Shown here: positions 14,835-63,644 of the stretch, piece by piece | How positions within the stretch are numbered: the stretch's first letter is position 1 | Layout of the letters: the number at the start of each line of letters is the position of its first letter | NCBI GenBank assembly: GCA_010093815.1 | Contig: ML996568.1 | Reading direction: 5' to 3' (one strand) | Length of the DNA stretch: 64,000 bases | From: Pseudovirgaria hyperparasitica | Taxonomy: Eukaryota | Program-made: the position numbers and the translations under genes | Notes under the pieces: generated by a model | The model's input: only the letters and a program-made list of their open reading frames with translations | Told to the model about the DNA's origin: nothing | Database searches by the model: none

Positions 14835-14899
14835 AGTTTCTTAGTCCTATATTCTTCTCGTGTATAATAGTCTATATTAGTCTATTCTAGACTTCTCTA

Positions 14900-21919: not shown

Positions 21920-24872
21920 GTAGGTTTTTAGGCGCCTAATCTTAGTACTTAAGATCGCGAGCCAGCTCCTAAAGAATTATATTACTTATCTTAGAGAGGT
22001 TAGATTCCTCCTTATCGGATAGTTCGTTAGGCCTCTCCTATCTATAGAAGTTCTCTTTAATGTTATCTAGGCCCGCGTTAGGCTCGAATTTCTTTAAATT
22101 AATTAGCCGCTTAGCGGCGCGCGCCTTATTAAATTCCTTCTAGAACGACCTATCCCTATAGACTAGCCTTTTCTACCTTACTATTTTCTTAAAGGTCTCC
22201 ACGAATACCCTCGAGCCCTCCTTAAACTAGGCGTCTATCTTAGCTTTAAGTTATTAAGGACTTATATTAAGCCACGTAGCTACCTCTTCTTTTACCTTCT
22301 AGCTATTCTATCTTTTATAGCTAACTAATACGTTACTAACGGCGTTAAAACTCGGGAGTTAAACTACGGCTAGAAAGGTAAAAGGAATCGCGCTATATTT
22401 ATTAGAAAATTCTAACGGAGACGTAGGTCCCGGAGTTAAATTCCTATAAGCTACTGCGAGTTATTCCTATATATCTATTTTAGGTACTTCCATTATTATA
22501 TGATTAGGGCCAATCGCGATATACTATAGAAGTATTATATATCTTCTACCCTTTATAGAACCCTAGGCGCCGTGTATTATTAGTAGGCTAGAGATATATA
22601 CTTTAAGGGACTAGTAGGGGACTAGGACGAAGGGACTAAATCGTTTCCTATCGTCCGTATTATAGATCTTATCGTTAATAGCTATAATTATACTATTTTA
22701 ATTAACCCCCTCGCGGAGCTTAGCCTTCGACTACTATTTATTTAAGAACTTATAGAAGCGGGGAATGATTATAGTATAGTCGTTACTTTATTCGTCGTCG
22801 AGACTAATACTCCCTTAGATTATATTAAACCCGTGTCTATCGCTAGAATCGAGGATTTGATTAATAGTATTATCGAGATACTTAAAACCCGTCTTATCGC
22901 CTCTATCCCAGGACTTCGCATAGTACGGGTACGAGATTAGATAGTAGTTAAGATTAGGCCGAAGAGCGATATAGGTGAGCTAGTAAAGTAGGTATTACCT
23001 AATAAACTATTAGATATAGGAGTGGTATATAGTTCGTAGCTAGCCGTAGTTCGATTTCTTATTAAACATACGCTGGTAGTACTTATATATATTAAATTCA
23101 TCCCTCGCGAGTTCTAGAATACTCTTATTAAGTATAGAGGTCGTCTTTTTAAGTAGCTCGAAGAGCCCTTTAATATTAATACTTCTAGTACGTTCCTACT
23201 CGTCGAAGAGTTATCTATCTATTCTACTATCCTCCTTCTAAATTATAAATGCGATACTAGTAAGGATAGTTTTAATATTAATAACTTACTTCGGGGTCTC
23301 TAGGGCCTAGTAACGATAGATACCTAATGCCTCTATCGGATAAGGTAGCCGCGCGTACTTCGCGAACTAGGTATAGTAGTTCTTATAAACTTTAAGGGCC
23401 CCCACGTTATCTCTAAACTTATATACTATTTTAAGTCTCGCTACTAGGTTTAAGTAGGACATACTAACGAGTATATTATTCTTTCTAGCCACGTCTTAGT
23501 AATACTTATAGTAGACTTTATACGGAATAGCCATGTTACCTATCTACGCTTTCTAGTGTACTAGTAGGGCTATTCTCTTAATACTCGTGAAATTCTTCTT
23601 TAATAATATAGCTACCTTAAAAGTCTTCGTTACTAAAGGCGCGTATTAATACTTCTTAGGCTTATCCTCTTCCTTAACCGATACTATTATCTTAGAGTAC
23701 GAACTAAGAATAACCGGGGATTATCGTATAGGCGCCCCTAGTAATTACTAAGGGCTAGTAGATAAGGCATATCCGCGAGTAGGTTTTATCGGCGTGGCTA
23801 TAATAGATACTAAAGACGTTCTTATATAGTCTAGTAAGGGACGTTTACTAGTAGTAGTAGGAGGAATACTTACTTTAAATAGACGACTAGCTTCGAAGAG
23901 ACGACGTACTACTAAACTAGAAGGCGTGCTTTATAGAGGGGACTTTACCACGGGCGTTACCTACGCTAGTTTTAGTAATAGTAAGGTCTAAGGCGGAGGC
24001 GATGCACTCATCTCTTTAATTTATAGATAGTATTCGACGGGCCTATAAACCATTCTACTTATCTATAATAACTATTAACTAGCGGGGATAATAAGTCCCG
24101 TCTTATTATAGAACGTTAGTTTATTTTATTAGCTAGGGTAGTTCGAGAGTTACTAGAGAGATAGACCGTCCTTATTACTATTACTAGCTAGGGCGGTATC
24201 GATATTAGAGCTCTAAAGATATACCTTAATTCTCCTTCCCTTCTATCCCTAGCCGATTCGGGACCATAGGGATACGTTTAACTAGTTCCTTACTCTCGCC
24301 CATGTCCGCACTTATAAGAGCGCTACTAGCTTTTCTATAAAGTTCTATGTTTACTAGAGCTATCCGAGAGCGGATTAGAGTAACTAGCCATCGTTATTAG
24401 AGAGGTCTTTTTACTAGTTTTATAGGATTATATTTTTAGCTTTTAGGATACGGGAGTTAGTATCTCTTCTATAATAAATTATCTCGTGGACTTCTTTCGG
24501 AATAGAGGAGTTAATCTTTACCTTACTATACTCTATTACGGCTTCTACTTCCTAGAAGAGGTTAACTATACTACTTAAGAGCTATTCTATAAGGCTAGTA
24601 ATATAAAGGAGATTATTAAACGTGTCTAGAATATAGTCCTATCGCTCTTACGGGTTCTAGATAGCGATAATTCGGTTAATAGTAGACTTATTTATTTCTA
24701 TAGCTTCTATAGCCTATCTATACGGAGTAGTAGATGGCCTTAATACTACGATAGCCGTCGATAGCCCTACTTTAGTACTTACGACTCTTAACTAGGACCG
24801 TATCTATCTTATTAGTGCTTAATAATCTTATAACTCTTTATAAGTAGGCGTTTTCTTCTTTAGCGGGGCTAT
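21920..24872 (-). pseudogene. Passenger ORF of F1, putative 2OG-Fe(II) dioxygenase (RIPed)
   Basis: Reads LISYPYYAKSWDRGDKTGFK(Y<H)LD... and IHGA (CAC intact at 22572-22574). Colinear with 45804-48760; stop position uncertain because of RIP. Confidence 0.7.
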
Positions 24873-25549
24873 TATTATTATTAGTTCTATTAGTAAGTTA
24901 CATTCTAAGAAGAGATAGTTTAAGTAAGGCGGAAGTAGAGGAGGAGATTTTATTAATTAAGAAGATATAGAGAGGTATAAGAGGGAAGAGTTATATACTA
25001 TCTTAAGTTCTCTTTTTATGCCTCCTCGAATGCCGGGTATATAGTAATTTTTATAAATGATCCTTACTAACGGCTATAGGCCCGTATACGTGTCGAATCT
25101 ATAAATAAATATATACTAGATATATAGGAAATCTATAAATGAATATATCTACCGGGTATATAGCGGAATCTATAAATAAATAGATACCGGGTATATTCTT
25201 ATCCTTATAAGACTTCCTATAAGTATCTTTTTCTCTTATACCTCCTCCTTCTTTTCTTTCTTATTAGTTTCTAATAGGGCCCGTTCTATAGTAACGAAAT
25301 AGGCCTTTAATAGATAGGCTTCGATTACACGACCGGTTTCAATATATAGTAGGTGGAATTTCGTGTAAACGCCATTATATCTTCTTTCGAGCATTACTTA
25401 CTTTAATAATAGGTTTTATTATTTTATAGTAATAATAGGATTTATTATCCTCTTTCGATAATAGAGTTTATTATTATAAGACTACTTTTATAAGTATCCC
25501 TTCTCTCCTTAAAAAAACTTCTATCCCCTAGAAGGAGATATCGATTCTA

Positions 25550-28500
25550 GGGAAACGTAAATATTTCTCTCTATTAAAGTCTTACGGAGTAGAAATTACC
25601 ACTTCCACCCGGGTTCGTATGGCGTCGTCGAGGTATTCCGTAAGTTATTTATAATAGTTTTTCTTATCGCTACTCTCCTTATTTTCCTTAGTAATTCTTC
25701 TAATTAGTAGTCGTAAGGGCTCGTCCTAACTCTCGTTACTCGCATTTCTTATAAAATATTTCTTTAACCTATGGCTAGGAAACGTCCCTCTAAGCATGGC
25801 TCTATTAAGCTCCGCGAGCTTATAAGTATAATTAAACATAGACTAAATTCTATATGGCCCCCTCTAATACCACCTTAGCTTCCGCTCTATATTCTTCTAT
25901 CGCTACGAGTTATATAGAAGGATAATTATATTAACTAGTAATAACTCTTAACGAAGGTAATAGTTATTATTCTATGCCTCTCTCGATTCCTCACGCGTTT
26001 ATATTATATAGATATAGGCCTCCTTAAGATCCTCGGATCTTCTCTTAAGTTATCTAGCTCGAAGAGCGAGTAAGTTAGACGTCGATCGTACCTCGTTCTA
26101 AGAGAGTATTTAGAGTAACTTGAATTCGACTTCGATAGGCATAATTAGTTTATAGCTAAGCACGAGGTATACGGTACTATACCCTATACTAGCACGTGTC
26201 GTTATTCTATCTACCTAGATAACCGCATGGAGGTAGTTAGGCTAGTTCTTAAATCCGCCATTAGTTATCTTCGCGAGAGTATTAGCGAGTAGTATAAAAC
26301 TTCTCTTAATAATTCTATTTACTCGGAGATTATATATAGACGTAACCTTCTAATAAATTCTATAGAGTCGGAGGAGCTCCTCTATAGCACCTATATTTTC
26401 TCTACTACCGTTATAGATGATTTTAGGAATAATTCTATATCTATAGATTACGTTCTTAAAGAGGAACTTTACGATAACTATAGACGTAGCCGCCGTATAT
26501 ACCTCCGCCTTAGTCTATCCGCTTAGCTATTCTTATATAGATACTACTTTACTATACTCTATAGAAGGTAGTAGTATTATTATATCTAAGTATATTCTTT
26601 ACTAAAGAATAGGCGTTATAACGTGGTAGAGCCCTTTATTAAGATCTCCGAGGAGCTTACTTCGTTATTAATATTTATTATAGGTTTTTACGTGCTATCG
26701 CACGTCTCTATATATACCTATCTACTAATACTTATTCTTAATCCTTCTAAGGGTCCCTTCGCTACCTCTATAATCTATCTTATTATAAGTAGTAGTAATT
26801 ATATACGCCCTAGTATTCGGATCCTTAATTACTCGTATATATTAGCGATGCCTATCTCCTCTCTACTAGAGTATTTAGTTATATATAAGGAACTTTAGGT
26901 AGTCGGTTATAAAGGCCTTATATACTCGGTCGGTTAGGTCGGTTAGTCTCTTAAGTATAGTAAGATACTTCGTAATCCTCTACTATTTATTACTATATTT
27001 ATCTATTAAGGGAGACTTAATAGCGGTATAGTTAAGTATCCCTATCGTGTAATCTCTCCCGCTAATAGGCTTAATTAACGACGTCTCTAGCACGTCTATA
27101 TATAGAGCCATATCTACGAACTTATCTAGGTTAAAGGTAGAGACGTCTAGTAGTTCTTCTTCTTCGTGTATCTATAAGATACTATTAGCGACTATATTAC
27201 GCTTTCTAGGTACATGCCTAACTATAAAGTTCTATAGCTAAATCCACGCGAGCTACCTAGTAACGAGCGCCCCTAGTAAGTTAGTTATAGTACGGTTAAT
27301 TTAAGCGACTAGAGTATTCGCGTCTATTTCTATAATAAAGTATATACTATAGAGATATTACCGGAACTTCTATAACGCGTAGAGGAGGGCTTAGTACTCT
27401 AGTTTCACGGTATTATAGTTTCTCTTAGCTTTTAACTATATTCCTCTATTATACCGCGATAGCTAATATTTATAATTCTTGTTCTCCTATATTAACGTAG
27501 CCCCCTATCTAATATTACTAGAGTCTACTACTAGGATTATATCTCCCGTATCTATCCCGTACTATAACGTTATTAGTATAGAAGTAGTAGTTAGAGCTAT
27601 CTTTAGCGCGTCTATTAAGGTCTACTCCTTAGCTATCTACTACTAGACCGATTTATTCTTTAATAGTATAAATAGCGGCGATACGATAATAGCGTACCCG
27701 GGGATCTATATCCGGAAATATATATAAACGCTAAGGAAGGCTCGTATATTCGTCGTGTTTTTATAGGGTTTCTAGTCCCTAATAGTAGTAACCTTTTTAT
27801 TACTCGGTCGCCTCCCTTTAATACTATAGACGTATTCTATAACGTTAGCGGCTTTAACATACTACTAAGTCTTCTTACTACTTAGGGCGTATCCAGCGCG
27901 CTCTATATCCGCGAGAACCTTATCTATATTAATTAAATATTCTAGGATATATCTATGAATTCTAGGCAGGGCCTCCTTAGAGTTATATTTCGTCATAGGT
28001 CCTTTAATATCTAAGTTATCTAGGAATAGTAGAGCCCTCTCCGGGATATATTCTTATATAATAGTTAATATAATTCTAACGAACTAAGCTACTAAATTAG
28101 TAGCCCCTTAAGGTAATATTATCCTATATAGTAATTCTAGAGGTGTTATAAACCCCGTTAAGTCTCGGTAATACTCTACTAATAGAATCTAATTATATCC
28201 TAAGAAGAAGTCGGTAAACGTTAAGACGGCTATCCCCGTAAAGTACTCCGAGAATTCTTTATATAAGGGCGGCGTAGCCGTATTACGAATAGTAACTCGG
28301 TTAATTTCTATCGCCGAATTAATTAACCTATAATCTTATTTCTTATTAGCTTCCTTCTTCTTTTCCATAAGAAAATAGGCGTTTTAATAAGGACTACTAT
28401 AGGGCTCGAGCCTTCTACTATTAAGACGCTCTTTTAGAATCGTAAGTACCTTTCTATAAAGGGCTCTAGAAATATTAAAGTTCTTAGCCTACTATATCTT

Positions 28501-31500
28501 ATATTCTACCGTTCGGATCTCCTATAGAGGTACTATCTCTTTATTAAATTTACTAAGATATAAGAATTTCTATACTAGTACTTCCTCGCGATATAATAAG
28601 ATTATATATAGTAACTTAAGTTCTACGGGACGTAGCTCTATTCTAATCTTTAGCTAACTTATATATAGAGGCGTTAGACGTGTTCCTAGCGGGATAGTTA
28701 CCCTTTAAGGCTCTATTAGTCTATTAAATACGTTAAGGCCTAGGTGGATAGCCGGAAGAAGTATCTACTATACGATTACTTATTCACGCTAGTCTAGATA
28801 CCCTAATAGATTTCTAGAGACCTTTTAGTGGGCTTCGGAGTTATCTATAGGGTGTACTTTAACTCCCTTTCTTTTATATATAGTAGCTATACTAAATCCC
28901 TTTAATACCCCGGATAAATACCGTCTTTAGAGGCCGGTGGAGCCTACTATAAGCTATTCTATTATTATACCTTATTTATATACGAAGGTAGCGTACCTTA
29001 CCGCCGTAACTACTAGGGCGGCTAAGTTATCTTTTCTTAATAACCGAGTAATATTTTTAGGCCGGATTTTCTCGGAAAGTAACTCTATATAACTTATTTC
29101 TATATCCGTATAAAAATATATCCTATCCCCTTTATTAGTAGGTTTACTAGACCCTATTTAGTGCGGATTATTAGTTAAGGGTAGCCCTTAACTAATAATC
29201 CGGCTTAACTCCGGCTTCTAGTAATATACTCCGCTATATAGTTAGTCTCTAGCCACGGAGTTACCCTCCTTCTCTAAGACTAGAATATACTTATCTAGAC
29301 TAGTTTTAAAGGTTACTCGTTCTTATCTATATACGGAGTAGACTATTAAGAGTACTTACCCGGAGACTAACCTCCGCACTATAAGTAAGGTCTACCTAGT
29401 ATATAGCTCCCCTAGGATAAGGTTATAATTAAGTTTACTATATATAAATATTAAAGTAGCTATAATAATCCAATCTATACGGATAGAGTATTACTATACT
29501 ATTCCTACGAATAGAGTACTATACTAAATAGCGCTAACTAAACTCGAGTTCTTTATATATAGTAGAAGTAAAGATATTACTAGCCTAAGACGCCTCGTAG
29601 CATCTAGTTAAATACTATTTACCTACGCGCTACTATCGAATAGTACTATACTAGTTACCCTTTTAGAACTAACTTCTATAGGGTACCTTAGATACTCGGC
29701 TACTAGCCTTACTATCTCTTCCTTAAGCTAATTAATATCTTATTATATAATAGCTATCCCTATAGTATAGAGGGGTACTAATACGTTAAGTTTATTTATC
29801 TTAGAAGCCATAGTATAGTCGTTTCTTCCTTTCTTCTCGGCTCTCCCCTCTTAAGCCTTATAGATCTCTCTAGCTATAAAGTTAGGGGCGCCCTTCTTAA
29901 ATACCGCACGATATAAGTTACTATTAAGGCTTAATAGTTCGCTAATAGTAATATTTATAGTTATCCCTAGAACGCGTACTAGCTATACTTTACTAGCTTC
30001 TATACTTAGCTACTATCCCTCGTATAGATAGTTATTAAGCTTAACGCCTCGGATACGTGCCTTTTAACTAGAATTTAGGCTATCCCCTTTATCTATCTTA
30101 TCCTTAGACGCTATTAGCTCTTATTTAGACATTCTCTAGTCGCTACTCTTCTTACTATCCTCCTATTCCTTAATAATTCTTATATACTACCCTTAACGCA
30201 TTCCGCGGAGACGGGCGATCTTTCTTTCCTTAGTATAATTAGGTATACTCTTTATAATCCCCCTTCTAGATATTATAAGTATAGCGGGCTCTTCTAGGGC
30301 TATCTCCTTATAGATATATCTATTACTAGCTACGTCGAAGCGTTCGTAGAATTCTATATATCTATCTTTCTTACTCTTAGGCGACGTAACTTCTTCTTCT
30401 AAATTACTATCCGCTAAGGCCTAGTAGGGACTCTTCGTAGGTTTTATACTAATACTATATACTAGTACTCTCTATAAAGCGTTAATATTTACTACGGACG
30501 TAGAAACCTTCACTCCCCCTCTATACTAGCTTAGGCCGTTTTAAACCGTTACTACGTAATTCCGGATAGCTTATAGGGTAGCTTATGGCTCTACTAAGAA
30601 GGGTAGTAATAGAATTTCTTCTCTATTCGCCCCGAAACGCCCTCGGAATACTTATACCCTATTAATATTTAGTAATCCGTCTCTAATATATCCTACTATC
30701 TCCGGATATCTATATATTAGGTAATCTCCTCTATACGTGATATATATAACCGGTCTTTAAGGTCTATTCTAGACTATAACGCCTTCTTAGAAGTCTCGGG
30801 TAGAGACGTATTCTCTATTCTATATATAATTCTATAGATAAACTTACGTTAGTTCTATAGGTATGCCTCATACTTAGAGGTATATTAAAAGATTTAGCCT
30901 TCGCGCCTACTAGTTAATAATAGCCGAAAGAAGCTTAGGTTCGTACTTCTTAAGGGATAAGAATAAGAGATTAGAGGTAAAGTAGGACTTTATCTTAATT
31001 AACGTGAGGTCTAGTTTACTAAATCTCTCTACTATCTTATTAAACTTATCCGATTCTAGCGCGACGTATACTTTAACTAGAGAGGGGTAGCTAAATTCAT
31101 TAGTTCTTCTTTCTTCATGTAACTACTCTTCTAAGCTAGTCTTCTTACTCCCTATCTTTAATTTATAGTATATAGCTATAGCTAGCTCTTATACGGCTAA
31201 GTACTTATTAATACGAGCTAGTTCCTTAAGTACTCTAGCCTTTCGTAATACGAAGCCATAGATAATTACCTAGTTATAACTATATACTTCTATCGTGAGT
31301 TAATATTTCTCTATAGCCCGAGCCTTAAGACTATTAGATAGCCCTTCTAGGAAGAGCTCTATTCACGAATACGAGCTTAGGCTTCCTTTAGCCGTAAGTT
31401 TCTCTATAATAATACGATACTAGAAGTAGTATATAGAGAGAGAGTAGGATAGGTCTACTTTAACCATTTCCACGTATTTTTAGATAAAGTAGATAGTGCC

Positions 31501-31960
31501 TTCCTCGAGGGCGGAGTTAAATAGAGAGAATTCCTTTAATAATTCTTCACGTAGCGTAGCCTACTACTATTTCTAAAACCTATCTATTCCTTTAATAGTA
31601 GAACGGAGATAGTTCTCGTAGTATAACGGTAGGGAGGTTATCTTCTTATTAGGCGGAACTTCGTAGTTTATATATATATCCTTATACTTCCGAAGGAAGA
31701 CTATAATATTTATTCCTTTAAAGCGCTTAGGGGCTAGGGTAGATAGAGGTACTATCCTTCCTTATCGCGTAAATACTATAAAGAAGTTAAGTATCTCTCC
31801 ACGAGTTACTAGGTCGTTATTTTAAGCTCCTATCGCACTATTACTAGTAGTAGATATACTAGTAGAGACACTAGGGGTAAGGTTATTAGTTAAGGGATTA
31901 CCTTAACTAAAGGTTAGCCTAATACGTCTACCTATAACATCTATTATCCCTTCTCTATGT
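25550..31960 (-). pseudogene. pol: RIPed gag-pol of F1
   Basis: Reverse complement of the F2 gag-pol; LFDSSAQV protease motif (~29630); boundaries approximate. Confidence 0.9.
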
Positions 31961-32837
31961 TAATTAATCCCTTTATAAGATAAACTATTACTATCGTCTT
32001 TATTAATATAAGGTTCATGGTATTCTACTTATATTATTATCTTTATATAAGGCGTTTCTAAAGTAGTATACTCGTGTAGCCGTGTTTATAAATAACAGCT
32101 ATAGTAGTACTAAATAGGTTATATTTATCGTTTTTAAACTCTTCTTTACCGCTTTATCTAGCTCTATTTTATATTCTATTCCCCTAAGATATTTTTGAGT
32201 CGCGCTATCACCCGTGTTAGTATACGCATGCTTTTTACGGCTACTTTTAAGAGGCTAGCCCCTAGCGACTCCGGACTCTCTATTTTCCGGACTTATAGCT
32301 TCGATCTAGTAAGTCTAGACTACCTTATTAGGCACGCTATATACTTCCCCTAAGCTAGTTTCGGAGTCCTAATCTCCCTCTATAAGTTCGTAGTCCGGGT
32401 ACGACCTCTAAAATTATAATAAGCTATCGCTACGTATATCCCTTTTATAAATAGCTATGTTCTTAGTATAGTAGTCGCGACGAACTTACAAGTATCTCTC
32501 CTAGGTATTATGAGTTCTCTTTAAACGTACGACTTCTTATTAGTTCTCTTTTACGATAGGACGGGTCTATATAATACTCTTAATTAATTTATCAATAGCT
32601 AAGTCTAATAATTAATACCTATAGAGACCTATAAACGTAAGGAAAGGTCGAATCGTCGAATATTAGTGATGGGGGAAGCGCGCCGAGTAGAATGACCAAG
32701 GAAAACGCCCTCCTTAAATATATAATAAGCCATGTAATCGAGCTAGGGACACATACATATAGGGCTGTAGGAACGGCCTTCCATACTATATAATAACCGT
32801 AGGGCTATATATTTCTTCTAGTAAGGTAGTAGTATTT

Positions 32838-37594: not shown

Positions 37595-38265
37595 TTATAC
37601 TAATACAACGTTTAATTCGGAAGAGACTAGCCATTTTATAATCGAGCTTTTTATTTACTTACGACGTTTATATATTATAGATATTAAGGAGGACTTCGTC
37701 TCCCTTCTCATACGCTTAATCTTTAACTAATCTATTATAGTACTTTATATACGACTTATTTACTTACTAGATTATTACGCGATAGTTACGTACGGTTTTA
37801 AAGATTTTAATTGCTAGTTCCTACGCGTGGACGTTAATATCTATCGTTCGGTCGAACTAGACCGTATAAGGTTTAAAACCTATCCTTAGACTACTATGGA
37901 AGGCCGCTCCTACAGCCCCACATATATATGTCCCTAGCTCGATTACATGGCTTATTATATATTTAAGAAGGGCGTTTTCCTTGGTCATTCTACTCGACAC
38001 GCTTCCCCCATTACTAATATTCAATGATTCGACCTTTCCTTATATTCATGGGCCTCTATAGGTATTAATTATTAGGCTTAGCTATTAATAAATTAATTAA
38101 GAGTATTATATAGACCCATCCTATTATAAAAGAGAACTAATAAGAAGTCGTGCGTTTAAAGAGAACTTATAATACCTAGGAGAGATACTTATGAGTTCGT
38201 CGCGACTACTATACTAAGAATATAACTATTTATAAAAGGGATATACGTAGCAATAGCTTATTATA

Positions 38266-38290
38266 ATTTTAGAGGTTATACCCGGACTAT
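38266..38290 (+). promoter_or_regulatory. Primer-binding site of family F, probably tRNA-Gln
   Basis: The F1/F2 consensus T(G)GAGGTCGTACCCGGACT is complementary to ...CCGGGTACGACCT-CCA. This resembles fungal tRNA-Gln 3' ends as I recall them; not checked. Confidence 0.6.
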
Positions 38291-38721
38291 AAACTTATAG
38301 GGGGAGATTAGGACTCCGAAACTAGCTTAGGGGAAGTATATAGCGTGCCTAATAAGGTAGTCTAGACTTACTAGATCGAAGCTATAAGTCTAGAAAACAG
38401 GGAGTCCGGAGTCGCTAGGGGCTAGCCTCTTAAAAGTAGCTATAAAAAGTATACGCATGCTAATACGGGTAATAGCGCGACTCGAAAATGTCTTAGGGGA
38501 ATAGAATATAAAATAGAGCTAGATAAAGTAGTAAAGAAGAGTTCAAAAACGATAAATATAACCTATTTAGTACTACTATAGCTATTATTTATAAATACGG
38601 CTATACGAGTATACTACTTTAGGAACGCCTTACACGAAGATAATAATATAAGTAGAATACTATAAACCTTATATCGATGAAGATAATAGTAATAGTTCAC
38701 CTTATAAAGGGATTAATTAAC

Positions 38722-41700
38722 ATGGAGAAGGGATGATAGGTGTTATAGGTAGACGCATTAGGCTAACCTTTAGTTAAGGTAATCCCTTAACTAATAACCT
38801 TACCCCTAGCGTCTCTACTAGTATATCTACTACTAGTAATAGTATAATAGGAGCTTAAAATAATAACCTAGTAACTCGTAGAGAGATACTTAACTTCTTC
38901 GTAGCATTTACGCGATAAGGAAGAATAGTATCTCTATCTACTCTAGCCCCTAAGCACTTTAAAGAAATAAACATTACGGCCTTCCTTCGGAAGTACGAGG
39001 ACATATATATAAACTATAAAGTTCCGCCTAATAAGAAGATAACCTCTCTACCGTTATACTACGAGGACTATCTCCGTTCTACTATTAAAGGAATAGATAG
39101 GTTTTAGAAATAGTAGTAGGCTATACTACGTGAAGAATTATTAAAGGAATTCTCTCTATTTAACTCCGCCCTTAAGGAAGGTACCATCCACTTTATCTAA
39201 AAATATATAGAAATGGTTAAAGTAGACCTATCCTACTCTCTCTCTATATACTACTCCTAGTATCGTATTATTACGGAGAAACTTACGGCTAAAGGAAGCC
39301 TAAGCTCGTATTTATAAATAGAGCTCTTCCTAGAAGGGCTATCTAATAGTCTTAAGGCTCGGGCTATAGAGAAATATTAACTTATAATAGAAGTATATAG
39401 TTATAACTAGGTAATTATCTATGGCTTCGTATCACGAAAGGCTAGAGCACTTAAGGAACTAGCTTATATTAATAAGTACTTAGCCGTATAAGAGCTAGCT
39501 ATAGCCATATACTATAAATTAAAGATAGGGAGTAAGAAGACTAGCTTAGAAGAGTAGTTATATAAAGAAAGAAGAACTAATAAATTTAGCTACCCCTCTC
39601 TAGTCGAAGTATATATCACGCTAGAATCGGATAAGTTTAACGAGATGGTAGAGAGATTTAGTAAACTAGACCTCACGTTAATTAAGATAAAGTCCTACTT
39701 TACCTCTAATCTCTTATTCCTATCTCTTAAGAAGTACGAACCTAAGCTACTTTCGGCTATTATTAACTAGTAGGCGCGAAGGCTAAATCTTTTAATACAC
39801 CTCTAAGTATAAGGCATGTCTATAGAACTAATATAAGTTTATCTATAGAATTATATATAGAATAGAGAATATATCTCTACCCGAGACTTCTAAGAAGGCG
39901 TTATAGTCTAGGATAGGCCTCGAAGACTAATTATATGCATTACGTACGGAGGAGATTACCTAATATATAGATGTCTAGAGATAGTAGGATACATTAGAGA
40001 CGGATTACTAAATATTAATAGGGTATAAGTATTCTAAGGGCGTTTTAGGGCGAACGGAGAAGAAATTCTATTACTACCCTTCTTAGTAGGGCTATAAGCT
40101 ACTCTATAAGCTATCCGGAACTATATAGTAACGGTTTAAAACGGCCTAAGCTAGTACGGAGGGGGAGTAAAGGTTTCTACGTCTATAGTAAATATTAACG
40201 CTTTATAGGGAGTACTAGTATATAGTATTAGTATAAAATCTATAAAGGGTCCCTACTAGGCCTTAGCGGATAGTGATTCGGAAGAAGAAGTTATATCGCC
40301 CGAGAGTAAGAAAGATAGATATATAGAATTCTATAAACGCTTCGACATAGCTAGTAATAGATATATCTATAAGGAAATAGCTCTAGAAGAGCCCGCTATA
40401 CTTATAATATCTAGAAGGGGGATTACGAAGAGTATACCTAATTATACTAAGGAAAGAAAGATTACCTATCTCCGCGGAATGCGTAAAGGGTAGTATATAA
40501 GAATTATTAAGGAATAGGAGGACGGTAAGAAGAGTAGCGACTAGAGAATATCTAAATAAGAGCTAACGGCGTCTAAGAATAAGATAGATAAAGGGGATAG
40601 CCTAAATTCTAGTTAAAAGGCACGTATCTAAGGCGTTAAGCTTAATAACTATCTACGCGAGGGATAGTAGCTAAGTATAGAAGCTAGTAAAGCATGGCTA
40701 GTGCGCGTTCTAGGGATAACTATAAATATTACTATTAGCGAACTATTAAGCCTTAATAGTAACTTACGTCATGCGGTATTCGAGAAGGGCGCCCCTAACT
40801 TTATAGCTAGAGAGGTCTACGAGACTTAAGAGGAGAGAGCTAAGAAGAAAGAAAGAAACGACTATACTATAGCTCCTAAGATAAATAAACTTAACGTATT
40901 AGTACCCCTCTATACTATAGGGATAGCTATTATATAATAAGATATTAATTAGCTTAAGGGAGGGATAGTAAGGCTAGTAGCTAAGTGTCTAAGGTACCCT
41001 ATGGAAGTTAGTTCTAAAAGGGTAACTAGTATAGTACTATTTAATAGTAGTACGTAGGTAAATAGTATTCGACTAGATACTATAAGGCGTCTTAGGCTAG
41101 TAATATCTTCGCTTCTACTATATATAAAGAACTCGAGTTTAGTTAGTACTACTTAGTATAGTACTCTATTCGTAGGAATAGTATAGTAATATCTAATCTA
41201 TATAGGTCGGATCGTTATAGCCACTTCGATATTTATATATAGCGAACTTAATTATAACCTTATCCTAGGGGAGCTATATACTAGGTAGGCCTTACTTACG
41301 GTATAGAGGTTAGCCTCTAGGTAAGTACTCTTAATAGTCTACTCTATATATAGATAAGAATATATAACCTTTAAAACTAGTCCGGACGAGTATATTCTAG
41401 TCTTAGAGAAGGAGGGTAACTCTATAGCTAGAGACTAACTATATAGCGGAGTATATCGCCAGAAGCCGGAGTTAAGCCGGATTATTAGTTAAGGGCTACC
41501 CTTAACTAATAATCCGTACTAAATAGGGTCCGGTAAACCTACTAATAAAGGGGATAGGATATATTTTTATATAGATATAGAAATAAGTTATATAGAGTTA
41601 CTTTCCGAGAAAATCCGGCCTAAAAATATTACTTAGTTATTAAGAAAAGATAACTTAGCCGCTCTAGTTACGGCGGTAAGGTATACTACCTTCGTATATA

Positions 41701-44700
41701 AATAAGGTACGATAATAGAATAGCTTATAGTAGGCTCTACCGGCCTCTAAAGACGGTATTTATCCGGGGTATTAAAGGGATTTAGTATAGCTACTATATA
41801 TAAAAGAAAGGGAGTTAAAGTATACCCTATAGATAACTCCGAAGCCTACCGAAAGGTCTCTAGGAATCTATTAGGGTATCTAGACTAGCGTGAATAAGTA
41901 ATCGTATAGTAGGTACTTCTTCCGGCCATCTACCTAGGCCTTAACGCGTTTAATAGGCTAATAGAGCCTTAAAGGGTAACTATCCTACTAGGAACACGTC
42001 TAACGCCTCTATATATAAGTTAGCTAAAGATTAGAATAGAGCTACGTCCCACGGAACTTAAGTTACTATATATAATCTTATTATATCGCGAGGAAGTACT
42101 AGTATAGGAATTCTTATACCTTAGTAAATTTAATAAAGAGGTGGTACCTCCGTAGAAGATCCGAACGGTAGAATATAAGGTATAGTAGACTAAGAACTTT
42201 AATATTCCTAGAGCCCTTTATAGGAAGGTACTTATAATTCTAAAAGAGCGTCTTAATAGCGGAAGGCTCGAGCCCTATAGTAGTCCTTATTAAAACGCCT
42301 ATTTTCTCGTAGAAAAGAAGAAGGAAGCTAATAAGGAACGAGATTATAGGTTAATTAATTCGGCGATAGAAATTAACCGAGTTACCATTCGTAATGCGGC
42401 TACGCTACCCTCGTATAAAGAATTCTTAGAGTACTTTACGGGGATAGCCGTCTTAATATTTACCGACTTCTTCTTAGAATATAATTAGATTCTATTAGTA
42501 GAGTATTACCGAGACTTAACGGGGTTTATAACGCCCCTAGAATTACTACGTAGGATAATATTACCTTAAGGGGCCACTAATTTAGTAGCTTAGTTCGTTA
42601 GAATTATATTAACTATTATATAAGAACATATCCCGGAGAGGGCTCTACTATTTCTAGATAACTTAGATATTAAAGGACCTACGACGAAATATAACTCTAA
42701 GGAGGCCCTACCTAGAATTCGTAGATATATTCTAGAATATTTAATTAACGTAGATAAGGTTCTCGCGGATATAGAGCGCGCCGGATACGCCCTAAGTAGT
42801 AAGAAGACTTAGTAGTATATTAAAGCCGCTAACGTTATAGGATACGTCTACGGTATTAAAGGGAGGCGACCGAGTAATAAAAAGGTTACTACTATTAGGG
42901 ACTAGAAACCCTATAAAAACACGACGAATATATAAGCCTTCCTTAGCGTTTATATATATTTCCGGATATAGATCCCCGGGTACGCTATTATTATATTATC
43001 ACTATTTATACTATTAAAGAATAAATCGGTCTAGTAGTAGATAGCTAAGGAGTAGACCTCGATAGACGCGCTAAAGATAGCTCTAACTACTACTCCCGTA
43101 CTAATAACGTTATAGTATAGGATAGATATAGAAGATATAATTCTAGTAGTAGACTCTAGTAACGTTAGGTGGGGGCTACGTTAATATAGGAGAACGAGAA
43201 TCGTAAATATTAGCTATCGCGGTATAATAGAGGAATATAGTTAAAAGCTAAGAGAAACTACGATACCGTGAAACTAGAGTACCGAGCCCTCCTCCACGCG
43301 TTATAGAAGTTCCAGTAATATCTCTATAGCACGTACTTTATTATAGAAATAGATATAAATACTCTAGTCGCTTAAATTAACTATACCGTAACTAACTTAC
43401 TAGGGGCGCTCGTTACTAGGTGGCTCGTATAGATTTAGCTATAGAACTTTATAGTTAGGCACGTACCTAGGAAGCGTAATATAGTCGCTAATAGTATCTT
43501 ACGGATACACGAAGGAGAAGAACTACTAGATATCTCTAGCTTTAACCTAGACGAGTTCGTGGATATGGCTCTATATATAGACGTGCTAGAGACGTTATTA
43601 ATTAAGTCTATTAGCGGGAGAGATTACACGATAGAGACACTCGACTATACCGCTATTAAGTCTCCCTTAATAGATGAATATAGCGATAAATAATAGAGGA
43701 TTACGAAGTATCTTACTATACTTAAGAGGCTAACTAACCTAACCGACCGAGCGTATAAGGCCTTTATAACCGACTACCTAAAGTTCCTTATACGTAACCG
43801 AATACTCTAGTAGAGAGAAGATAGGTATCACTAATATATACGAGTAATTAAGAATCCGAATACTAGGGCGCGTATAATTACTACCACTTATAACGAGATA
43901 GATTATAGAGGTAGCGAAGGGACCCTCGGAAGGATTAAGAATAAGTATTAGTAGATAGATATACGTAGAGACGTGCGATAGTATATGAAAACCTATAACG
44001 AATATTAATAATGAAGTAAGCTCCTCGGAGGTCTTAATAAAGGGCTCTACTACATTATAATACCTATTCTTTAGTAAAGAATATACTTAGACGTAACGAT
44101 ACTACTATCTTCTATAGAGTATAGTAAAGTAGTATCTATACGAGAATAGCTAAGCGGATAGACTAAGGCGGAGGCATATACGGTAGCTATATCCATAGTT
44201 ATCGTAAAGTTCCTCTTTAAGAACGTAATCTATAGATATAGAATCATTCCTAAAATCATCTATAACGGTAGTAGAGAAAATATAGGTGCCATAGAGGAGC
44301 TCCTCTAACTCTATAGAATTTATTAGAAGGTTACGTCTACGTATAATCCCCGAGTAAATAGAATTATTAAGAGAAGTTTTATACTACTTACTAATGCTCT
44401 CGCGAAGATAACTAATAGTAGATTTAAGAACTAGCCTAACTACCTCTATACGGTCGTCTAGGTAGATAGAATAACGATACGTGCTAGTATAGGGTATAGT
44501 ACTATATATCTCGTACTCGGCTATAAACCAATTATACCTATTAAAGTCGAATTCGAGTCGCTCCGAATACTCCCTTAGGATAAGGTATAATCGACGTCTA
44601 ACTTACTCGCTCTTTAAGCTAGATAACTTAAGAGAAGATCCGAGGATCTTAAGGAGGCCTATATCTACGCGATACGAACGCGTAAGGAATTAAAAGAGGC

Positions 44701-45130
44701 ATGGAATAACGACTATTACCTTCGTTAAGAGTCGTTACTAGTCGATATAATTATCCTTCTATATAACTTATAGTAATAGAAGAATATAGGGCGGAAGCTA
44801 AGGTAGTATTAGAGGGGGCTATATAGAATCCAATCCGTGTTTAATTATACTTATAAGCTCGTAGAGCTTAATAGAGCTATACTTAGAGGGACGTTTCCTA
44901 GCCATAGGTTAAAGAAATATTTCATAAGAAATGTAAGTAACGAGAGTTATAACGAGCCCTTATAACTACTAATTAGAAGAATTACTAAGGAAAATAAGGA
45001 GAGTAGCGATAAGGAAAACTATTATAAATAACTCATGGAATACCTCGACGACGCCATACGAACCCGGGTAGAAGTAGTAATTTCTACTCCGTAAGGCTTT
45101 AATAGAGAGGAATATTTACGTTTCCCTAGA
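38722..45130 (+). pseudogene. pol: RIPed gag-pol of F2 (PR, RT, RNase H, IN; no chromodomain seen)
   Basis: Protease VLF(D)S(G)AQV (~41035); RT LP(Q)GATN and FLD(D) (~42560-42665); RNase H VVDSS..GWG (~43145); integrase GPY-like (~44815). Boundaries approximate. Confidence 0.92.
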
Positions 45131-45477
45131 ATCGACATCTCCTTCTAGGGGATAGAAGTTTTTTTAAGGAGGGAAGGGATACTTATAAAAGTAGTCTTAT
45201 AATAATAAACTCTATTATCGAAAGAGGATAATAAACCCTATTATTACTATAAAATAATAAAACCTATTATTAAAGTAAGTAATGCTCGAAAGAAGACATA
45301 ATGGCGTTTACGCGAAATTCCACCTACCATACATTAAAACTAGTTATATAATTAAAGCCTACCTATCGAAGGCCTATTTCGTTACTATAGAACGGGCCCT
45401 ATTAGAAACTAATAAGGAAGAAAAGAAGGAGGAGGTATAAGAGAAAAAGATACTTATAGAAAGTCTTATAAGGATAA

Positions 45478-45582
45478 GAATATACCTAGTATCTATTCAT
45501 TTATAGATTCCGCTATATACCCGGTAGATATATTTATTTATAGATTTCCTATATACCTAGTATATATTTATTCATAGATTTA
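45478..45582. repeat. Three ~35-bp tandem repeats upstream of the F passenger ORF (also ~25095-25197 in F1)
   Basis: Unit ~ATATACCCGGTATATATTCATTCATAGATT(CC), three times. Confidence 0.8.
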
Positions 45583-45803
45583 ATACGTATACGGGCCTAC
45601 GGCCGTTAGTAAGAATTATTTATAAAAATTACTATATACCTAGCATTCGAGGAGGCATAAAAAGAGAACTTAAGATAGTATATAACTCTTCCCTCTTACA
45701 CCTCTCTATACCTCCTTAATTAATAAAACCTTCTCCTCTACTTCCGCCTCGCTTAAACTATCTCTCCTTAGAATATAACTTACTAATAGAACTAATAATA
45801 ATA

Positions 45804-48760
45804 ATAGCCCCGCTAAAGAAGAAAACGCCTACCTATAAAGAGTTATAAGATCGTTAAGCACTAATAAGATAGACGCGGTTCTAGTTAAGAGTCGTAAGTA
45901 CTAAAGTAGGGCTATTAACGGCTATCGTGGTATTAAGGCCATCTACTACTCCGTATAGATAGGCTATAGAAGCTACGGAAATAAATAAGTCTACTATTAA
46001 CCGAATTATCGCTATCTAGGACCCGTAAGAGCGATAGAACTATATTCTAGATATATTTAATAATCTTCTTCACATTACCAGCCTCGTAGAATAGCTCTTA
46101 AGTAGTATAGTTAACCTCTTCTAGAAAGTAGGAGCCGTAATAGGGTATAGTAAGGTAAAGATTAACTCCTCTATTCCGAAAGAAGTCCATGAGATAATTT
46201 ATTATAGAAGAGATACTAACTCCCGCATCCTAAAAGCTAAAAATATAATCCTATAAAACTAGCGAAAAGACCTCCCTAATAATAATAGCTAGTTACTCTA
46301 ATCCGCCCTCGGATAGCTCTAGTAAACATAGAACTTTATAGAAAAGCTAGTAGCGCTCTTACGAGTGCGAATATAGGCGAGAGTAAGGAACTAGTTAAAC
46401 GTATCTCTATAGTTCTAAATCGGCTAGGGATAGAAGAGAAGGGGAATTAAGGTATATCTTTAGAGCTCTAATATTAATACTACCCTAGCTAGCAATAGTA
46501 ATAAGGACGGCCTATCTCTCTAGTAACTCTCGAACTACCCTAGCTAATAAAATGAACTAACGTTCTATAATAAGACGGGACTTATTATCCCCGCTAGTTA
46601 ATAGTCACGGATAAGTAGAATGGTTCATAGGCCCGTTAAATACTACCTATAAATTAAAGAGATAAGTATATCGCCTCTGTCTTAGACCTTACCGTCGCTA
46701 AAACTAGCGTAGGTAACGCCCGTAGTAAAGTCCCCTCTATAAAGCACGCCTTCTAGTTTAGTAGTACGTCGTCTCTTTAAAGCTAGTCGTCTATTCGAAG
46801 TAAGTATTTCTCCTACTACTACTAGTAAACGTCCCTTACCGGGCCATGCGAGAACGTCTTTAGTACCCGTTATAGCTACGCCGATAAAACCTACTCGCGG
46901 ACATGCCTTATCTACTAGCCCTTAGTAATTACTAGAGGCGTCTATATAATAATCCCCGGTTATTCTTAGTTCGCACCCTAAGATAATAGCATTAGTCGAG
47001 AAAGAGGACGAGCCTAAGAAGTATTAATGCGCGCCTTTAGTGACGAAGACTTTTAAGATAGCTATATTATTAAAGAAGAATTTCACGAGTATTAAGGGAA
47101 TGGCCCTACTAGTACGCTAGAAAGCGTAGATAGGTAACATAGCTATTCCGTATAAAGTCTACTATAAGTATTACTAAGACGTGGCTAGAAAGAATAATAT
47201 ACTCGTTAGCGTGTTCTACTTAAACCTAGTAGCGAGACTTAAAATAGTATATAAGTTTAGAGATAACGTAGGGGCCCTTAAAGTTTATAAGGACTACTAT
47301 ACCTGGTTCGCGAAGTACGCGCGGCCACCTTATCCGATAGAGGTATTAGATATCTATTATTACTAGGCCCTAGAGACCCTAAAGCAAGTTATTAATATTA
47401 AAACCATCCTTACTAGTATTATATTTATAATTTAGAAGGAGAACGGTAGAATAGGTAGATAACTCTTCGACGAGTAGGAACGTACTAGAAGTATTAATAT
47501 TAAAGGGCTCTTCGAGCCACTTAAAAAGACGACCTCTATACTTAATAAAAGTATTCTAGAACTCGCGAGGGATAAATTTAATATATATAAGTACTACCAG
47601 CGTATGTTTAATAAGAAATCGAACTACGGCTGGCTATAAACTATATACCACTCCTATATCTAATAGTTTATTAGGTAATATCTACTTTACTAGCTTACCT
47701 ATATCGCTCTTCGGCCTAATCTTAACTACTATCTAATCTCGTACCCGTACTATATGAAGTCCTAGAATAGGGGCGATAAGACGGGTTTTAAGTATCTTAA
47801 TAACGCTATTAATCGAATTCTCGATTCTAGTAATAGACACGAGTTTAATATAATCTAGGGGAGCATTAGTCTCGACGACGAACGAAGTAACGACTATACT
47901 ATAATCATTCCCCGCTCCTATAAGTTCTTAAATAAATAGTAGTTAAAGGCTAAGCTCCGCGAGGGGGTCAATCGAAACGGTATAATCACGGCTATTAATA
48001 ATAAGATCTATAATATAGATGATAGGAAACGATTTAGTCCCTTTGTCCCGGTCCCCTACCAGTCCCTTAAAGTACGTATCTCTAGTCTACTAATAATATA
48101 CGGCGCCTAGGGTCCCGTAAAGGGTGGAAGACGTATAATACTTCTATAGTATATCGCGATTAGCCCTAATTACATAATAATAGAAGTGCCTAAAATAGGT
48201 ATATAGGAATAACTTATAGTAGCTCATAGGAATTTAACTCCGGGACCCACGTCTCCGTTAGGATTTTCTAATAAATATAGCGCGATTCCTTTTACCTTCC
48301 TAGCCGTAGTTTAACTCCCGAGTTTTAACGCCGTTAGTAACGTATTAGTCGGCCGTAAAAGATAGAACAGCTAGAAGGTAAAAGAAGAGGTAGCTGCGTG
48401 GCTTAACGTAAGTCCTTAATAACTTAAAGCCAAGGTAGACGCCTAGTTTAAGGAGGGCTCGAGGGTATTCGTGGAGACCTTTAAGAAAATAGTAAGGTAG
48501 AAAAGGCTAGTCTATAGGGATAGGTCGTTCTAGAAGGAATTTAATAAGGCGCACGCCGCTAAGCGGCTAATTAATTTTAAGAAATTCGAGTCCAACGCGG
48601 GCCTAGATAACGTCAAAGAGAACTTCTACAGATAGAAGAGGCCTAATAAACTATCCAACAAGGAGGAATCTAACCTCTCTAAGATAAGTAACACAATTCT
48701 TTAGGAGCTGGCTCACGACCTCAAGTACTAAGATTAGGCGCCTAAAAACCTACCTAATTA
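45804..48760 (+). pseudogene. Passenger ORF of F2 (~980 codons), putative 2OG-Fe(II) dioxygenase, PhyH-like
   Basis: Start-like ATA(G) GCC CCG CTA AAG AAG AAA at 45804 is in the same frame as ORF-track 47181-47366. In the translated part (47181 onward) stops are TAA/TAG, as RIP produces. HxD at 47793-47801, H at 48099, RR at 48129-48134. Confidence 0.72.
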
Positions 48761-51700
48761 TTAGTTAAGGGCTACCCTTAACTAATAATCCGGGCTAAGG
48801 TTTACCCGCGCCGAGAGGTTTACTAGGGGCGTATTTTATTTATATTAAGGTCTTTCTTTTAGGCGTTCTTCACACGGTTTCTTACACGGTTACTATACTA
48901 CTAAGGGTAGTAGTTCTATAGGGCCGGGGAGGTATATATAGAAGGCCGCTCCTATAGCCCTATATATATATGTCCCTAGCTCGATTATATAGCTTATTAT
49001 ATATTTAAGGAGGGCGTTTTCCTTGGTCATTCTACTCGGCACGCTTCCCCCATTACTAATATTCGATAATTCGATCTTTCCTTACGTTTATAGGCCTCTA
49101 TAGGTATTAATTATTAGGCTTAGCTATTAATGAATTAATTAAGAGTATTATATAGACCCGTCCTATCGTAAAAGAGAACTAATAAGAAGTCGTGCGTTCA
49201 AAGAGAACTTATAATACCTAGGAGAGATACTTATGAGTTCGTCGCGACTACTATACTAAGAATACAACCATTTATAAAAGGGACATACGTGGCGATAGCT
49301 CATTATACTACGTTCTAGGTTCGCCTAGAAGGGCGTAACATCTATTATACTATAACGACTATTATTATACGCGAATTCTACTATACTTAGTAGAGAGGCC
49401 TAGTTATCTTATTTAAAATTATAGAATGTACGAAGGTAGGCCTTAAGCGTTTGATTCTATCGCTCTATCTAACTATCTATTTATAGATGGAATACTATTA
49501 ATATGTTTCTATTTATACCGGCCATTTCGTAGAATAACGTCTAGAATTTAGACATAAATATACTCCCTCGGTCTATAACGATCCTTTTTAGTATACTATA
49601 GACCTTAATAATCTTATTCTAGAATACTTATACTAGTTCTTTTAATATAATTATCTTCTATATAGGGACGTACCTAGATATCTTTATAAGTCTATCTACG
49701 ATAATAAGAATTAAATTATAACTTATTCTAAGCATCTTACTTAGAGGTAAGTTAACTATAAAATCTATAGTAATATCTTCCTATATAAAGAGGGGGACTA
49801 GTAGAGGCTATAAGTTCCTATATAGCTTATGCCTAGGTACCTTTATTCTTTAATAAATCGGATAAGTAGCTATCTATTCTTTAACGTACTTAGATATATC
49901 TTTCTAAAAATAGTACTAACAAATCGAGCTTAGAGTGCGTATATACCCGAAATATTCTACTAGGTTAGCGTTATAGTATCGGCTAACTACGGTAAATCGT
50001 GCGTTACCCGTCGGTATATAGTACTTTCTATCGTAGTAGAGTAAGCCGTCTACGAAGGTCTACTTATAGTCTACTTTAGTCTATAATAACCTATCTTACT
50101 ATATTTTACGTAACTTTAAAACTATCGGGTCTATCTTTTATAGATCCACGATTAACTAGGCGAGGTCTACTTAATATATACGCCGGGCACCATTACCCTC
50201 CCTAATAGCGCTAATAAATAGCTCGCTAGGGACTTCGGTACCGCGTCTTTAGTTACTAGCTTTGGTCTTATAAATTCAATTACTAGCATTAGTATTAGTA
50301 TCTCGCTAATTATTAGATAACTTATTATCTAACCTCGTCCTTAAGAGTTAGGCCTATAGCTACTCTAGAACCCTATAGCTACTATAATCCTAGGCGCCTT
50401 CTTTATAGTTAGGTCTTCTTAATATTCTATTAGCTAGGTTTATACTTCTAGGTTTATGGTAGATTATAAAGTAGAAATTTATAAGCTACTTAGCCTATCG
50501 AATCTATCGACGATTTAAAACCGTTATACTTATAAACCCCTTTAAGTTATAGTAATTAGTTAGTAACTTAACGTTATATATAGTATCTTTAAGATAATAT
50601 CGCTACTACTTAAACGACTCTACTATTACTAGTAGCTCTTAGTTATAAATAGTATATCTAGTCTTAACGTCGGCTATCTTACGCGAGAAGAACGTAACTA
50701 GATACTATTAGACCTTTTTAGACTCTATTAGTCTAGGCTAGAAGAGTATACCTAAGATTATAAATTCTAATATATTAGTTTCGACGCGAATAGGTTTAAT
50801 TAGATCGAAGTACACTAGTAATAGGGCGGTTATAAATGCTTCTTTAATCTTCTTAAAGGATGTTCTTTCGACCTTAGTTAATTTAATAGATTATGATTTA
50901 ATATTACGCTATTTCTATCTACCACGGACCGTAATAGACGAGTTAGTAGTAGTAGTATACGTATTAAGTAGTGCGGCTAAACGGGAGAAGTATTTAATAA
51001 ATTTTCGGTAGTAGTTAGCGAAGCTAATAAAAGACACGTATATCTCAAATAGATTTTAGTTTAGGCTAGTCCATAATAGTAGTAACTCTATCTCTCTCTA
51101 TAGTTATACCTTAATTAGTAATAACGAAGCTAAGAAAGTTAATATGGTTCTAATGGAACTCGCATTTAGATAGCTTAATATATAGCTTATACTTTTCTAG
51201 CCTATCTAGAACTATACGTACGTGCTAGATATACTCCTTCTTATTATCTAAGAAGATAAGGATATTATCTAGGTATACGATATATATCGTGTCGAGTAGG
51301 CCTACTAGCGCGTTATTAATATATGCTTAGAAGGTGTCTAGCGCGTTAGTTAGTCTAAAAGGGACTATAGTATACTTAAAGTATCTATAACGGGTTCTAA
51401 AAGCCGTTTTCCATTCGTTATCTTTCTTAATATAAAGGCGATAGTAGGCGTTACGTAGATCGAGCTTAGTAAAGATCTTTACGCGTTCTAGTCTATCGAT
51501 AGACTCGGAGATAAGAGATAGTAGATAACGATTCTTTCGCGTAATATTATTTAGGCTATAGTAGTTAATATATAGACGGAGGCTCCTATCCTTCTTCTTT
51601 ATAAAGAGGATTAGAGCTCCGGCTAGGGATATACTAGGCCTAATCTATTCTTATATAAGGTTCTTTTCGATATATTCTTAAAGGGCTTATAACTTAGGTT

Positions 51701-63328: not shown

Positions 63329-63644
63329 ATTTAGTAAGTAAGTATAGAATTAAGACTTTAAGTAAATTATCTTATAAGTTCCCTTTTCTCTTATTAGGGC
63401 TAGTAAGTAATATTTCTAGATAAGAAGGTTTATTCTAAAAAGACTTATCTTAAGTTAGAGAAAGAATATACGGCTACTACTTAGCGAAAGGCTTAGTAGG
63501 ACGCTTAGACCGCCTTTACGTGTCTAGAGTATCTAGAGAAATAGTAGAAGCTATTAGAGCGTCGTTAAAATAATATACTTTATTAGAATCTATTAGTAAT
63601 AGATCTTAAGAAGAAGGAGAAGTAACTTAAATAATAATAGAGAG
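63329..63644 (-). mobile_element. Fragment of another family A copy
   Basis: Direct match to 10233-10548 apart from RIP-type changes. Confidence 0.85.

Follow-up and report, generated by a model that had tools for sequence, protein, structure and literature searches.

The window, the whole 64-kb stretch of Pseudovirgaria hyperparasitica DNA that was analyzed, contains two copies of a Gypsy LTR element, F1 and F2, on opposite strands, together with the truncated 5' end of an unrelated LINE. A palindrome of about 33 bp lies three times in each F element and once in the LINE fragment. Positions are those of the window.

37895..49307, plus strand: Gypsy LTR element F2; LTRs at 37895-38265 and 48937-49307, 4-bp target duplication, RIP-inactivated
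38766..38798: F2 site 1, degenerate (33-mer with 5 arm mismatches), in the gag frame about 500 bp past the 5' LTR
41478..41516: F2 site 2, 18-bp perfect arms around 3 nt, in frame in the protease-reverse transcriptase (RT) linker
45810..48764, plus strand: remnant of the passenger gene, about 985 codons (start approximate), predicted PhyH-like Fe(II)/2-oxoglutarate dioxygenase family, with RIP stops
48757..48789: F2 site 3, 15-bp arms; the passenger frame ends at the left-arm TAG (48762-48764), about 150 bp 5' of the 3' LTR
21367..32785, minus strand: Gypsy LTR element F1; 4-bp target duplication, RIP-inactivated
31882..31914: F1 site 1, degenerate (33-mer with 5 arm mismatches)
29164..29202: F1 site 2, 18-bp perfect arms around 3 nt
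21884..21916: F1 site 3, 16-bp arms around 1 nt
62147..63330, minus strand: LINE 5' fragment (5' UTR and start of ORF1)
63164..63196: palindrome in the 5' UTR of this truncated Tad1-like LINE, with two non-complementary changes, a variant present in 8 genomic copies

A preliminary description of this DNA had reported three palindromes per F element, and all six are present. Its positions and perfect arms for sites 2 and 3 (41478-41516, 48757-48789, 29164-29202, and 21884-21916) were borne out, and the degenerate sites that it quoted at 38770-38797 and 31883-31910 lie inside the 33-mers 38766-38798 and 31882-31914. The motif is not specific to F, however, since the LINE holds most of the copies and host DNA holds one; the seventh window copy, at 63164-63196, was absent from that description. 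The palindrome does occur inside coding sequence as described, sites 1 and 2 lying in the gag-pol frame and site 3 carrying the last stop of the passenger frame. The palindromes are not chance products, as the real 58-kb RIP region holds 11 arm/spacer combinations with arms of at least 15 bp, at four places, against a mean of 0.03 combinations in 30 order-4 Markov simulations of that region.

The internal regions of F1 and F2 differ by 810 transitions and 7 transversions, which indicates a young Gypsy family that was inactivated by RIP; the F2 LTR pair differs by 26 transitions and 1 transversion. Searches for pol homologues returned 14 and 2 proteins, only one of which reached the protease side, and in one related intact pol the protease and RT share one ORF, with a linker that could not be aligned to that of F. 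Other LTR families, with LTRs of about 240 bp, are nested around F1 and F2 (12453-20462, 33674-37894, and 49300-56421) and lack the palindrome. Just outside the window, an F element is nested in another F (L025:192-10000; G000:C4:1960192-1970000).

On profile matches and a structural model of its closest homologue, the F passenger is a predicted member of the PhyH-like Fe(II)/2-oxoglutarate dioxygenase family, an identity that ruled it out as a recombinase. A query with X at the stops found 597 homologues at E values up to 0.001. PhyH gave weak matches in 9 of 24 homologues scanned, one of them above the cut-off, and an H-x-D...H...R set and four Cys/His residues show little or no variation across 50 sequences. 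The model of the top homologue (pLDDT 80) resembles 2-oxoglutarate oxygenases of the PhyH/DUF1479 type; a PDB sequence search with the dioxygenase profile gave nothing below an E value of 0.36. The protein also has a Cys/His cluster and a helical N-terminal part. Stops are present in every passenger copy scored (46 of 46 and 50 of 50). An AlkB-type domain has reportedly been found in Gypsy elements of orchids. The passenger ends in DY and its two closest foreign homologues end in DHY, an ending seen in 2 of the top 2 homologues versus 1 of 148 others with a similar end (Fisher p = 3e-4, for homologues that are not independent); these endings may reflect an old motif at the passenger stop.

Copies in the genome and their sequence

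A degenerate form of the palindrome, searched with up to two mismatches, matched the genome 577 times and its reversed control not once. An exact RIP-tolerant 23-mer gave 474 copies (76 + 61 + 174 + 163), of which 473 lie in four contexts, with F site 1 falling outside what this pattern counts.

LINE 5' site: 179 exact copies
LINE 3' site: 167 exact copies
F site 2: 61 exact copies
F site 3: 66 exact copies, 5 of them from an older, more mutated F relative

The remaining copy sits at a junction, and a single stray junction copy in 474 suggests that the module is not freely mobile. Flanks were read by eye for 407 of the 474 copies, the other 67 being constrained by two diagnostic bases to LINE 3'-like sites, and none of the 407 joined the flanks of two site classes. 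An origin as a MITE or DNA-transposon terminal repeat was rejected, as a half-site scan found no such family and the 474 copies amount to four inherited contexts and one junction. At that junction (G000:C47), 54 bp of LINE 5' UTR plus the palindrome is flanked on one side by unique DNA and on the other by a third Gypsy family, in which the site is natively absent. The break falls at the end of an arm and not in the spacer, and it looks like filler at a break rather than a spacer exchange. The locus (L039:4991-7457) is un-RIPed and single, with a truncated gag-pol of the third family that is related to window positions 58975-61352.

The second carrier family is a 5.3-kb LINE with endonuclease and RT domains, which we take to be Tad1-like. 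It comprises at least three subfamilies at 6 to 8% transversion divergence and bears the palindrome at both ends of its coding region. A search with ORF1 found one homologous protein. The LINE is present in four sequencing runs, all under one organism code, and no RNA dataset is listed among the runs that hold it. Some subfamilies have swapped segments: one copy (L018) combines a 5' UTR from one subfamily with the body of a different one, and the 5' UTR of a second (L017) is common with a subfamily that is 6% distant elsewhere. One RIP-escaped copy (L034:3500-8420; G000:C52) has an open ORF1 and an ORF2 that is open for 925 codons and then interrupted; it is without the normal 3' tail of the family. 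Another copy has a tandem partial duplication of the 5' site, giving one and a half palindromes (L081:5580-5645; G000:C27:214577).

Many LINE copies carry damaged sites. In at least 24, a 33-nt deletion removed the left arm of the 3' site. Two non-complementary changes in the 5' site are common to eight copies, among them the one in the window, and a ninth has one of the two changes. Seven of the eight doubly changed 5' sites are paired with a half 3' site about 4.7 to 4.8 kb away, so the LINE has spread with both sites altered, and the copies with a lost arm or a doubly changed site show that intact sites were not needed for that spread. The palindrome is accessory, not essential, to LINE spread. 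Short tandem-like 27-bp repeats precede the 3' site, and the half-site deletion lies between short C runs (L034:3660-3740, minus strand).

Un-RIPed copies have a 31-bp core, TTATTAGTCAAGGG-C-W-G-CCCTTGACTAATAA, with 14-bp arms and a 3-bp centre. The inner C and the C-W-G centre that had been deduced from the RIPed sites are thus both seen in real un-RIPed copies. The TGATAA expected in de-RIPed arms is not, since the outer arm of RIP-escaped copies reads TTATTAG instead of TTATCAG, and an arm of the GATA type was accordingly rejected. TTATTAG is present in both arms of 4 of the 6 copies with an un-RIPed core, the other 2 being old divergent fragments. The centre is C-W-G in the elements, A-W-T in the host copy, and a 5-bp spacer in F site 1, whose least-RIPed copy has perfect 10-bp arms and a centre that is a single change away from the host form and three changes away from C-W-G. 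Centre orientation is constant at F site 2 (61 of 61) and F site 3 (66 of 66); a flipped centre occurs in 4 of 167 copies of the LINE 3' site, and the LINE 5' site is divided 86 versus 93 by subfamily. At both LINE sites, no arm column varies across the three subfamilies, against a mean of 3.45 variable columns per 31 bp, although 7% of LINE windows likewise have none and the 31 bp downstream of the 3' site is as conserved as the site itself. In at least 3 LINE copies, an A-to-G change in an arm disrupts the DNA symmetry and one of the heptamers. Likeness of the flanks runs a few bases beyond the arms at the LINE 3' site and at F sites 2 and 3.

On either strand, the 33-mer can be read through in one frame and has stops in the other two, which would restrict its placement to a UTR, an in-frame linker, or a stop codon. 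All five placements are compatible with coding in this sense. The ATG of LINE ORF1 lies 1 nt past the 5' site in an un-RIPed copy, the ORF2 frame stops at the left-arm TAG of the 3' site in two copies, F site 3 likewise supplies a TAG, and F sites 1 and 2 form part of the gag-pol frame. The passenger stop within site 3 was present in 20 of 20 F copies, which is weak evidence because 35 of 75 stop positions are invariant in F copies through RIP saturation; un-RIPed LINE copies, in which the same arm occurs, also support the stop. The peptide encoded by the in-frame palindrome was absent from the 165 proteins examined.

Beyond this genome, the exact core had no match in a viral collection or in prokaryote genomes. 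A metagenome collection, the only fungal-containing collection scanned and, like the others, not a proper fungal genome set, gave no fungal match; its two matches were judged chance rather than true homologues (bacterial-type ORFs, GC 0.5-0.65). No published description of the palindrome sequence, or of a dyad common to a Gypsy element, a LINE, and host DNA, was found in a literature search that was thin on subscription papers.

The host copy and its neighbouring gene

When the genome was searched for both arm heptamers a set distance apart, it gave, besides the element copies, one un-RIPed host site and two matches at chance level. The host site and the gene beside it are as follows.

G000:C19:255587-255633: host site, 23-bp arms with two mismatches, A-W-T centre
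L072:1659-4229 (G000:C19:252259-254829): Reb1-like chromo-Myb gene, single-copy, with Chromo, Reb1_MybAD, and Myb domains

The host site matches the palindrome at 27 of 28 arm positions, for which the chance expectation is 3e-8 per genome. Its flanks are single-copy and un-RIPed, and they resemble element flanks with z at most 2.0 over 36 comparisons, on which ground a decayed LINE end was rejected. DNA contigs from a second sample bridge the site with zero differences. The site is intergenic, 758 bp past the stop of the chromo-Myb gene and 439 bp from a convergent zf-DNL gene; in one run with contigs that skip GT-AG introns, there was no cover at L072 4821-5170, across the host site, an observation that was given no evidential weight because it comes from a single run.

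The chromo-Myb gene is spliced in the contigs of one run (a 54-nt in-frame intron). Its protein resembles S. pombe Reb1 (5EYB) at an E value of 4e-15 and, weakly, the CBX5 chromodomain (E value of 4e-4); its Chromo and Reb1_MybAD matches are below the Pfam cut-off. An HP1-like chromodomain thus appears to precede the DNA-binding region in a Reb1-like Myb protein, for which the ESM Atlas held no usable match. Of 15 Myb matches, this gene alone was a Reb1-like locus, in a count that could miss intron-rich paralogues.

The position of the host site next to a Reb1-like gene is suggestive, as a single adjacency noticed post hoc. Two results bear on whether such a protein uses the palindrome in the standard way. 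In the 3.7 kb after the assembled LSU rRNA gene, no half-site was found within 3 mismatches, in a check that covered one rDNA copy, itself RIPed, and in which another spacer was masked. Half-sites across the genome were at control level (71 matches, including element-derived ones, versus 57 for the control). The lack of a motif after the LSU gene and of dispersed half-sites speaks against a standard Reb1 site. The assembled rDNA unit (L106-L107; G000:C40:1-12500) is RIP-mutated and carries a group I intron within its LSU gene; LINE insertions follow the unit.

Possible roles of the palindrome

The same arms recur in five element contexts, in two unrelated element classes, and in host DNA. We give a probability of roughly one half to the reading that the palindrome is a candidate duplex DNA site, contacted by a protein on both arms, which the progenitors of both elements captured as an accessory signal. 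Among the functions proposed in the preliminary description, a dimeric protein-binding site is the best supported, if indirectly, by the fixed arms, the variable centre, and the single host copy, though not by way of TGATAA. Fixed arms around a varying centre are more in keeping with a dimeric DNA-binding site than with an RNA stem, and the symmetric change at the ±1 positions, which would be loop bases in RNA, is explained more easily by duplex dyad symmetry or fold-back repair than by RNA pairing.

On this reading, the 31-bp core would be a dyad-symmetric double-stranded site for a sequence-specific protein gripping both arms. A short module would have been copied into the progenitors of Gypsy F, at three places, and of the Tad1-like LINE, at two, limited to where coding tolerates it (UTR, in-frame linker, or stop codon). 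As the elements multiplied, it would have been carried along passively, until RIP froze it. We infer that a protein binds the site and that binding aided the elements, perhaps by keeping chromatin open, by insulation, or by regulating transcription at the two ends of the coding region. The binder might be the Reb1-like chromo-Myb protein, a Yap/AP-1 bZIP factor, or a product of F itself. Yap1-type heptamers are retained in F site 1, in the host copy, and in the 8-copy LINE variant, in which the right-arm heptamer becomes TTACTAA. These heptamers and most of the tolerated variants would suit a Yap/AP-1 binder, which would leave the 14-bp arm and the A-to-G variant unexplained. The single host site found and the control-level half-sites argue against an ordinary Reb1 terminator or a general regulatory site.

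It is possible, if on balance doubtful, that the palindrome is a functionless hitchhiker, a self-complementary module that was copied by template switching or as break filler and amplified with its carriers. Fold-back repair would maintain its symmetry and flip its centre, and the host copy would be another old landing. The 54-bp LINE piece at the G000:C47 junction ends exactly at an arm end, centres flip at both LINE sites without exchange of flanks, damaged LINE sites still spread, and the few bases of flank likeness past the arms are what copying predicts. Such a history would nevertheless require the module to have been fixed independently five times in element progenitors, on three occasions precisely at an ORF boundary. 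It sits poorly with arms that are invariant between LINE subfamilies and with only one stray copy among 474, and the DHY/DY passenger ends hint at something old at the stop.

We consider unlikely an RNA hairpin, which the preliminary description had proposed for packaging or processing, that acts on the element transcript at the ORF1 start, in processing of the stop or 3' end, or in packaging or RT pausing. The stem is stable in every context, with z values of -4.0 to -7.6 (only -2.3 for F site 1), as any palindrome would be. The sites do adjoin the LINE ORF1 start, and the stops of LINE ORF2 and the F passenger are in the left arm. In a check for compensatory changes, the arms were nearly invariant, with one variant compatible with G-U pairing (A to G), one with two non-complementary changes, and symmetric change only at loop positions. 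Two old LINE fragments differ at an outer base, and the other arm of one of them may carry a matching change. Against these, no arm pair covaries among the young families, the doubly non-complementary LINE variant exists in 8 copies, and sequence is kept beyond the needs of pairing across unrelated contexts; the host copy is intergenic, and there was no Rfam match at E values up to 1.

Targets of recombinases of the lox/FRT type have inverted 13- to 14-bp arms around a spacer, give deletion and inversion products, and have a cognate recombinase. The layout of the palindrome (14-bp arms, a variable centre of 3 to 5 bp), the way its sites bracket coding modules, and the one junction at an arm end recall such targets, and the preliminary description had likened it to a recombinase site with 13-bp arms and a 7-bp core and called for F derivatives deleted or inverted between sites. 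A tyrosine-type recombinase target that excises or inverts element modules is nonetheless highly improbable, since none of 407 sites had exchanged flanks or represented a deletion or inversion product, F sites 2 and 3 each keep one centre orientation, the G000:C47 junction lies outside the spacer, and the passenger is not a recombinase; frequent recombination between sites is largely refuted.

A bolder form of the protein-binding reading, rather unlikely in our estimation, is that the palindrome is a docking site of a chromatin-acting protein (the Reb1-like Myb protein, whose locus has the only host copy, or the F dioxygenase). Both element classes would have taken it up on either side of their coding regions as a means of evading or modulating silencing, with the LINE hitchhiking on a host or Gypsy system. 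If true, this would be a fungal, cross-class counterpart of sequence-specific anti-silencing. For the question of how retrotransposons reach hundreds of copies despite strong fungal RIP and heterochromatin, a 31-bp cis-element in a Gypsy element, a LINE, and one host locus offers a testable handle with named candidate binders. Should a host or element protein bind the palindrome, unrelated element classes would have converged on one regulatory site; with no binder, short palindromic modules would move between element classes and host DNA.

Comparison with known systems

The palindrome fails the tested features of the Conserved Hairpin Site, recombinase targets (the arm-spacer layout excepted), MITEs, VANC arrays, and rDNA terminators. 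The Conserved Hairpin Site of GalEa Copia elements lies immediately downstream of the 5' LTR and consists of two 9-bp sequences that are separated by 12 to 41 bp and contain a fixed A/A mismatch (PMC5445492). It resembles the palindrome in being a self-complementary sequence common to distant retroelement families in one fungal species. The palindrome differs in its 14-bp arms and 3-bp centre, in lying at least 500 bp from the 5' LTR, and in its presence in a LINE and in host DNA, and membership in the GalEa class was rejected on the position in place of the PBS, the 9-bp A/A-mismatched arms, and the Copia host.

VANC motifs of Arabidopsis VANDAL transposons are 8 to 9 bp long and form dense tandem arrays in the same orientation in noncoding element DNA, and the unrelated element AT9TSD1 also carries them (PMC5735166). 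Gypsy F similarly combines an element-borne motif with an element-encoded accessory protein, although it and the LINE have 2 or 3 isolated 31-bp dyads per element rather than dense arrays, and a link between the dioxygenase and the site is only putative. TET/JBP dioxygenases are reported only from DNA transposons (PMC12730594).

Proteins of the Reb1/TTF1 type bind long sites, such as the 18-bp Sal box of mouse TTF1, and can block Pol II (PMC8501966, PMC11358750, and PMC5052057). The host copy recalls their terminators in lying between convergent genes beside a Reb1-like gene. Reb1/TTF1 terminator sites, as described, are orientation dependent and located in rDNA, whereas the stretch past the assembled LSU gene yielded no half-site of the palindrome, and the genome as a whole shows no enrichment of half-sites.

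TTAGTCA/TGACTAA, and also TTACTAA, are listed Yap1 elements (PMC6545440). Each arm of the palindrome holds TTAGTCA/TGACTAA, as in Yap1/AP-1 response elements, although the 14 bp conserved per arm and the fixed 11-bp spacing go beyond what a 7-bp element needs.

The LTRs of S. pombe Tf1/Tf2 carry a conserved site for Sap1, a host protein that also acts at host loci (PMC5371812). Sap1 sites are polar fork barriers in the LTRs of one lineage, whereas the palindrome is a putative site in the form of a perfect dyad outside the LTRs; it occurs in both an LTR element and a LINE, and a single host copy was found. Like the Tf elements with their Sap1 site, Gypsy F is a retrotransposon with a conserved candidate site for a host factor, and the palindrome may work likewise.
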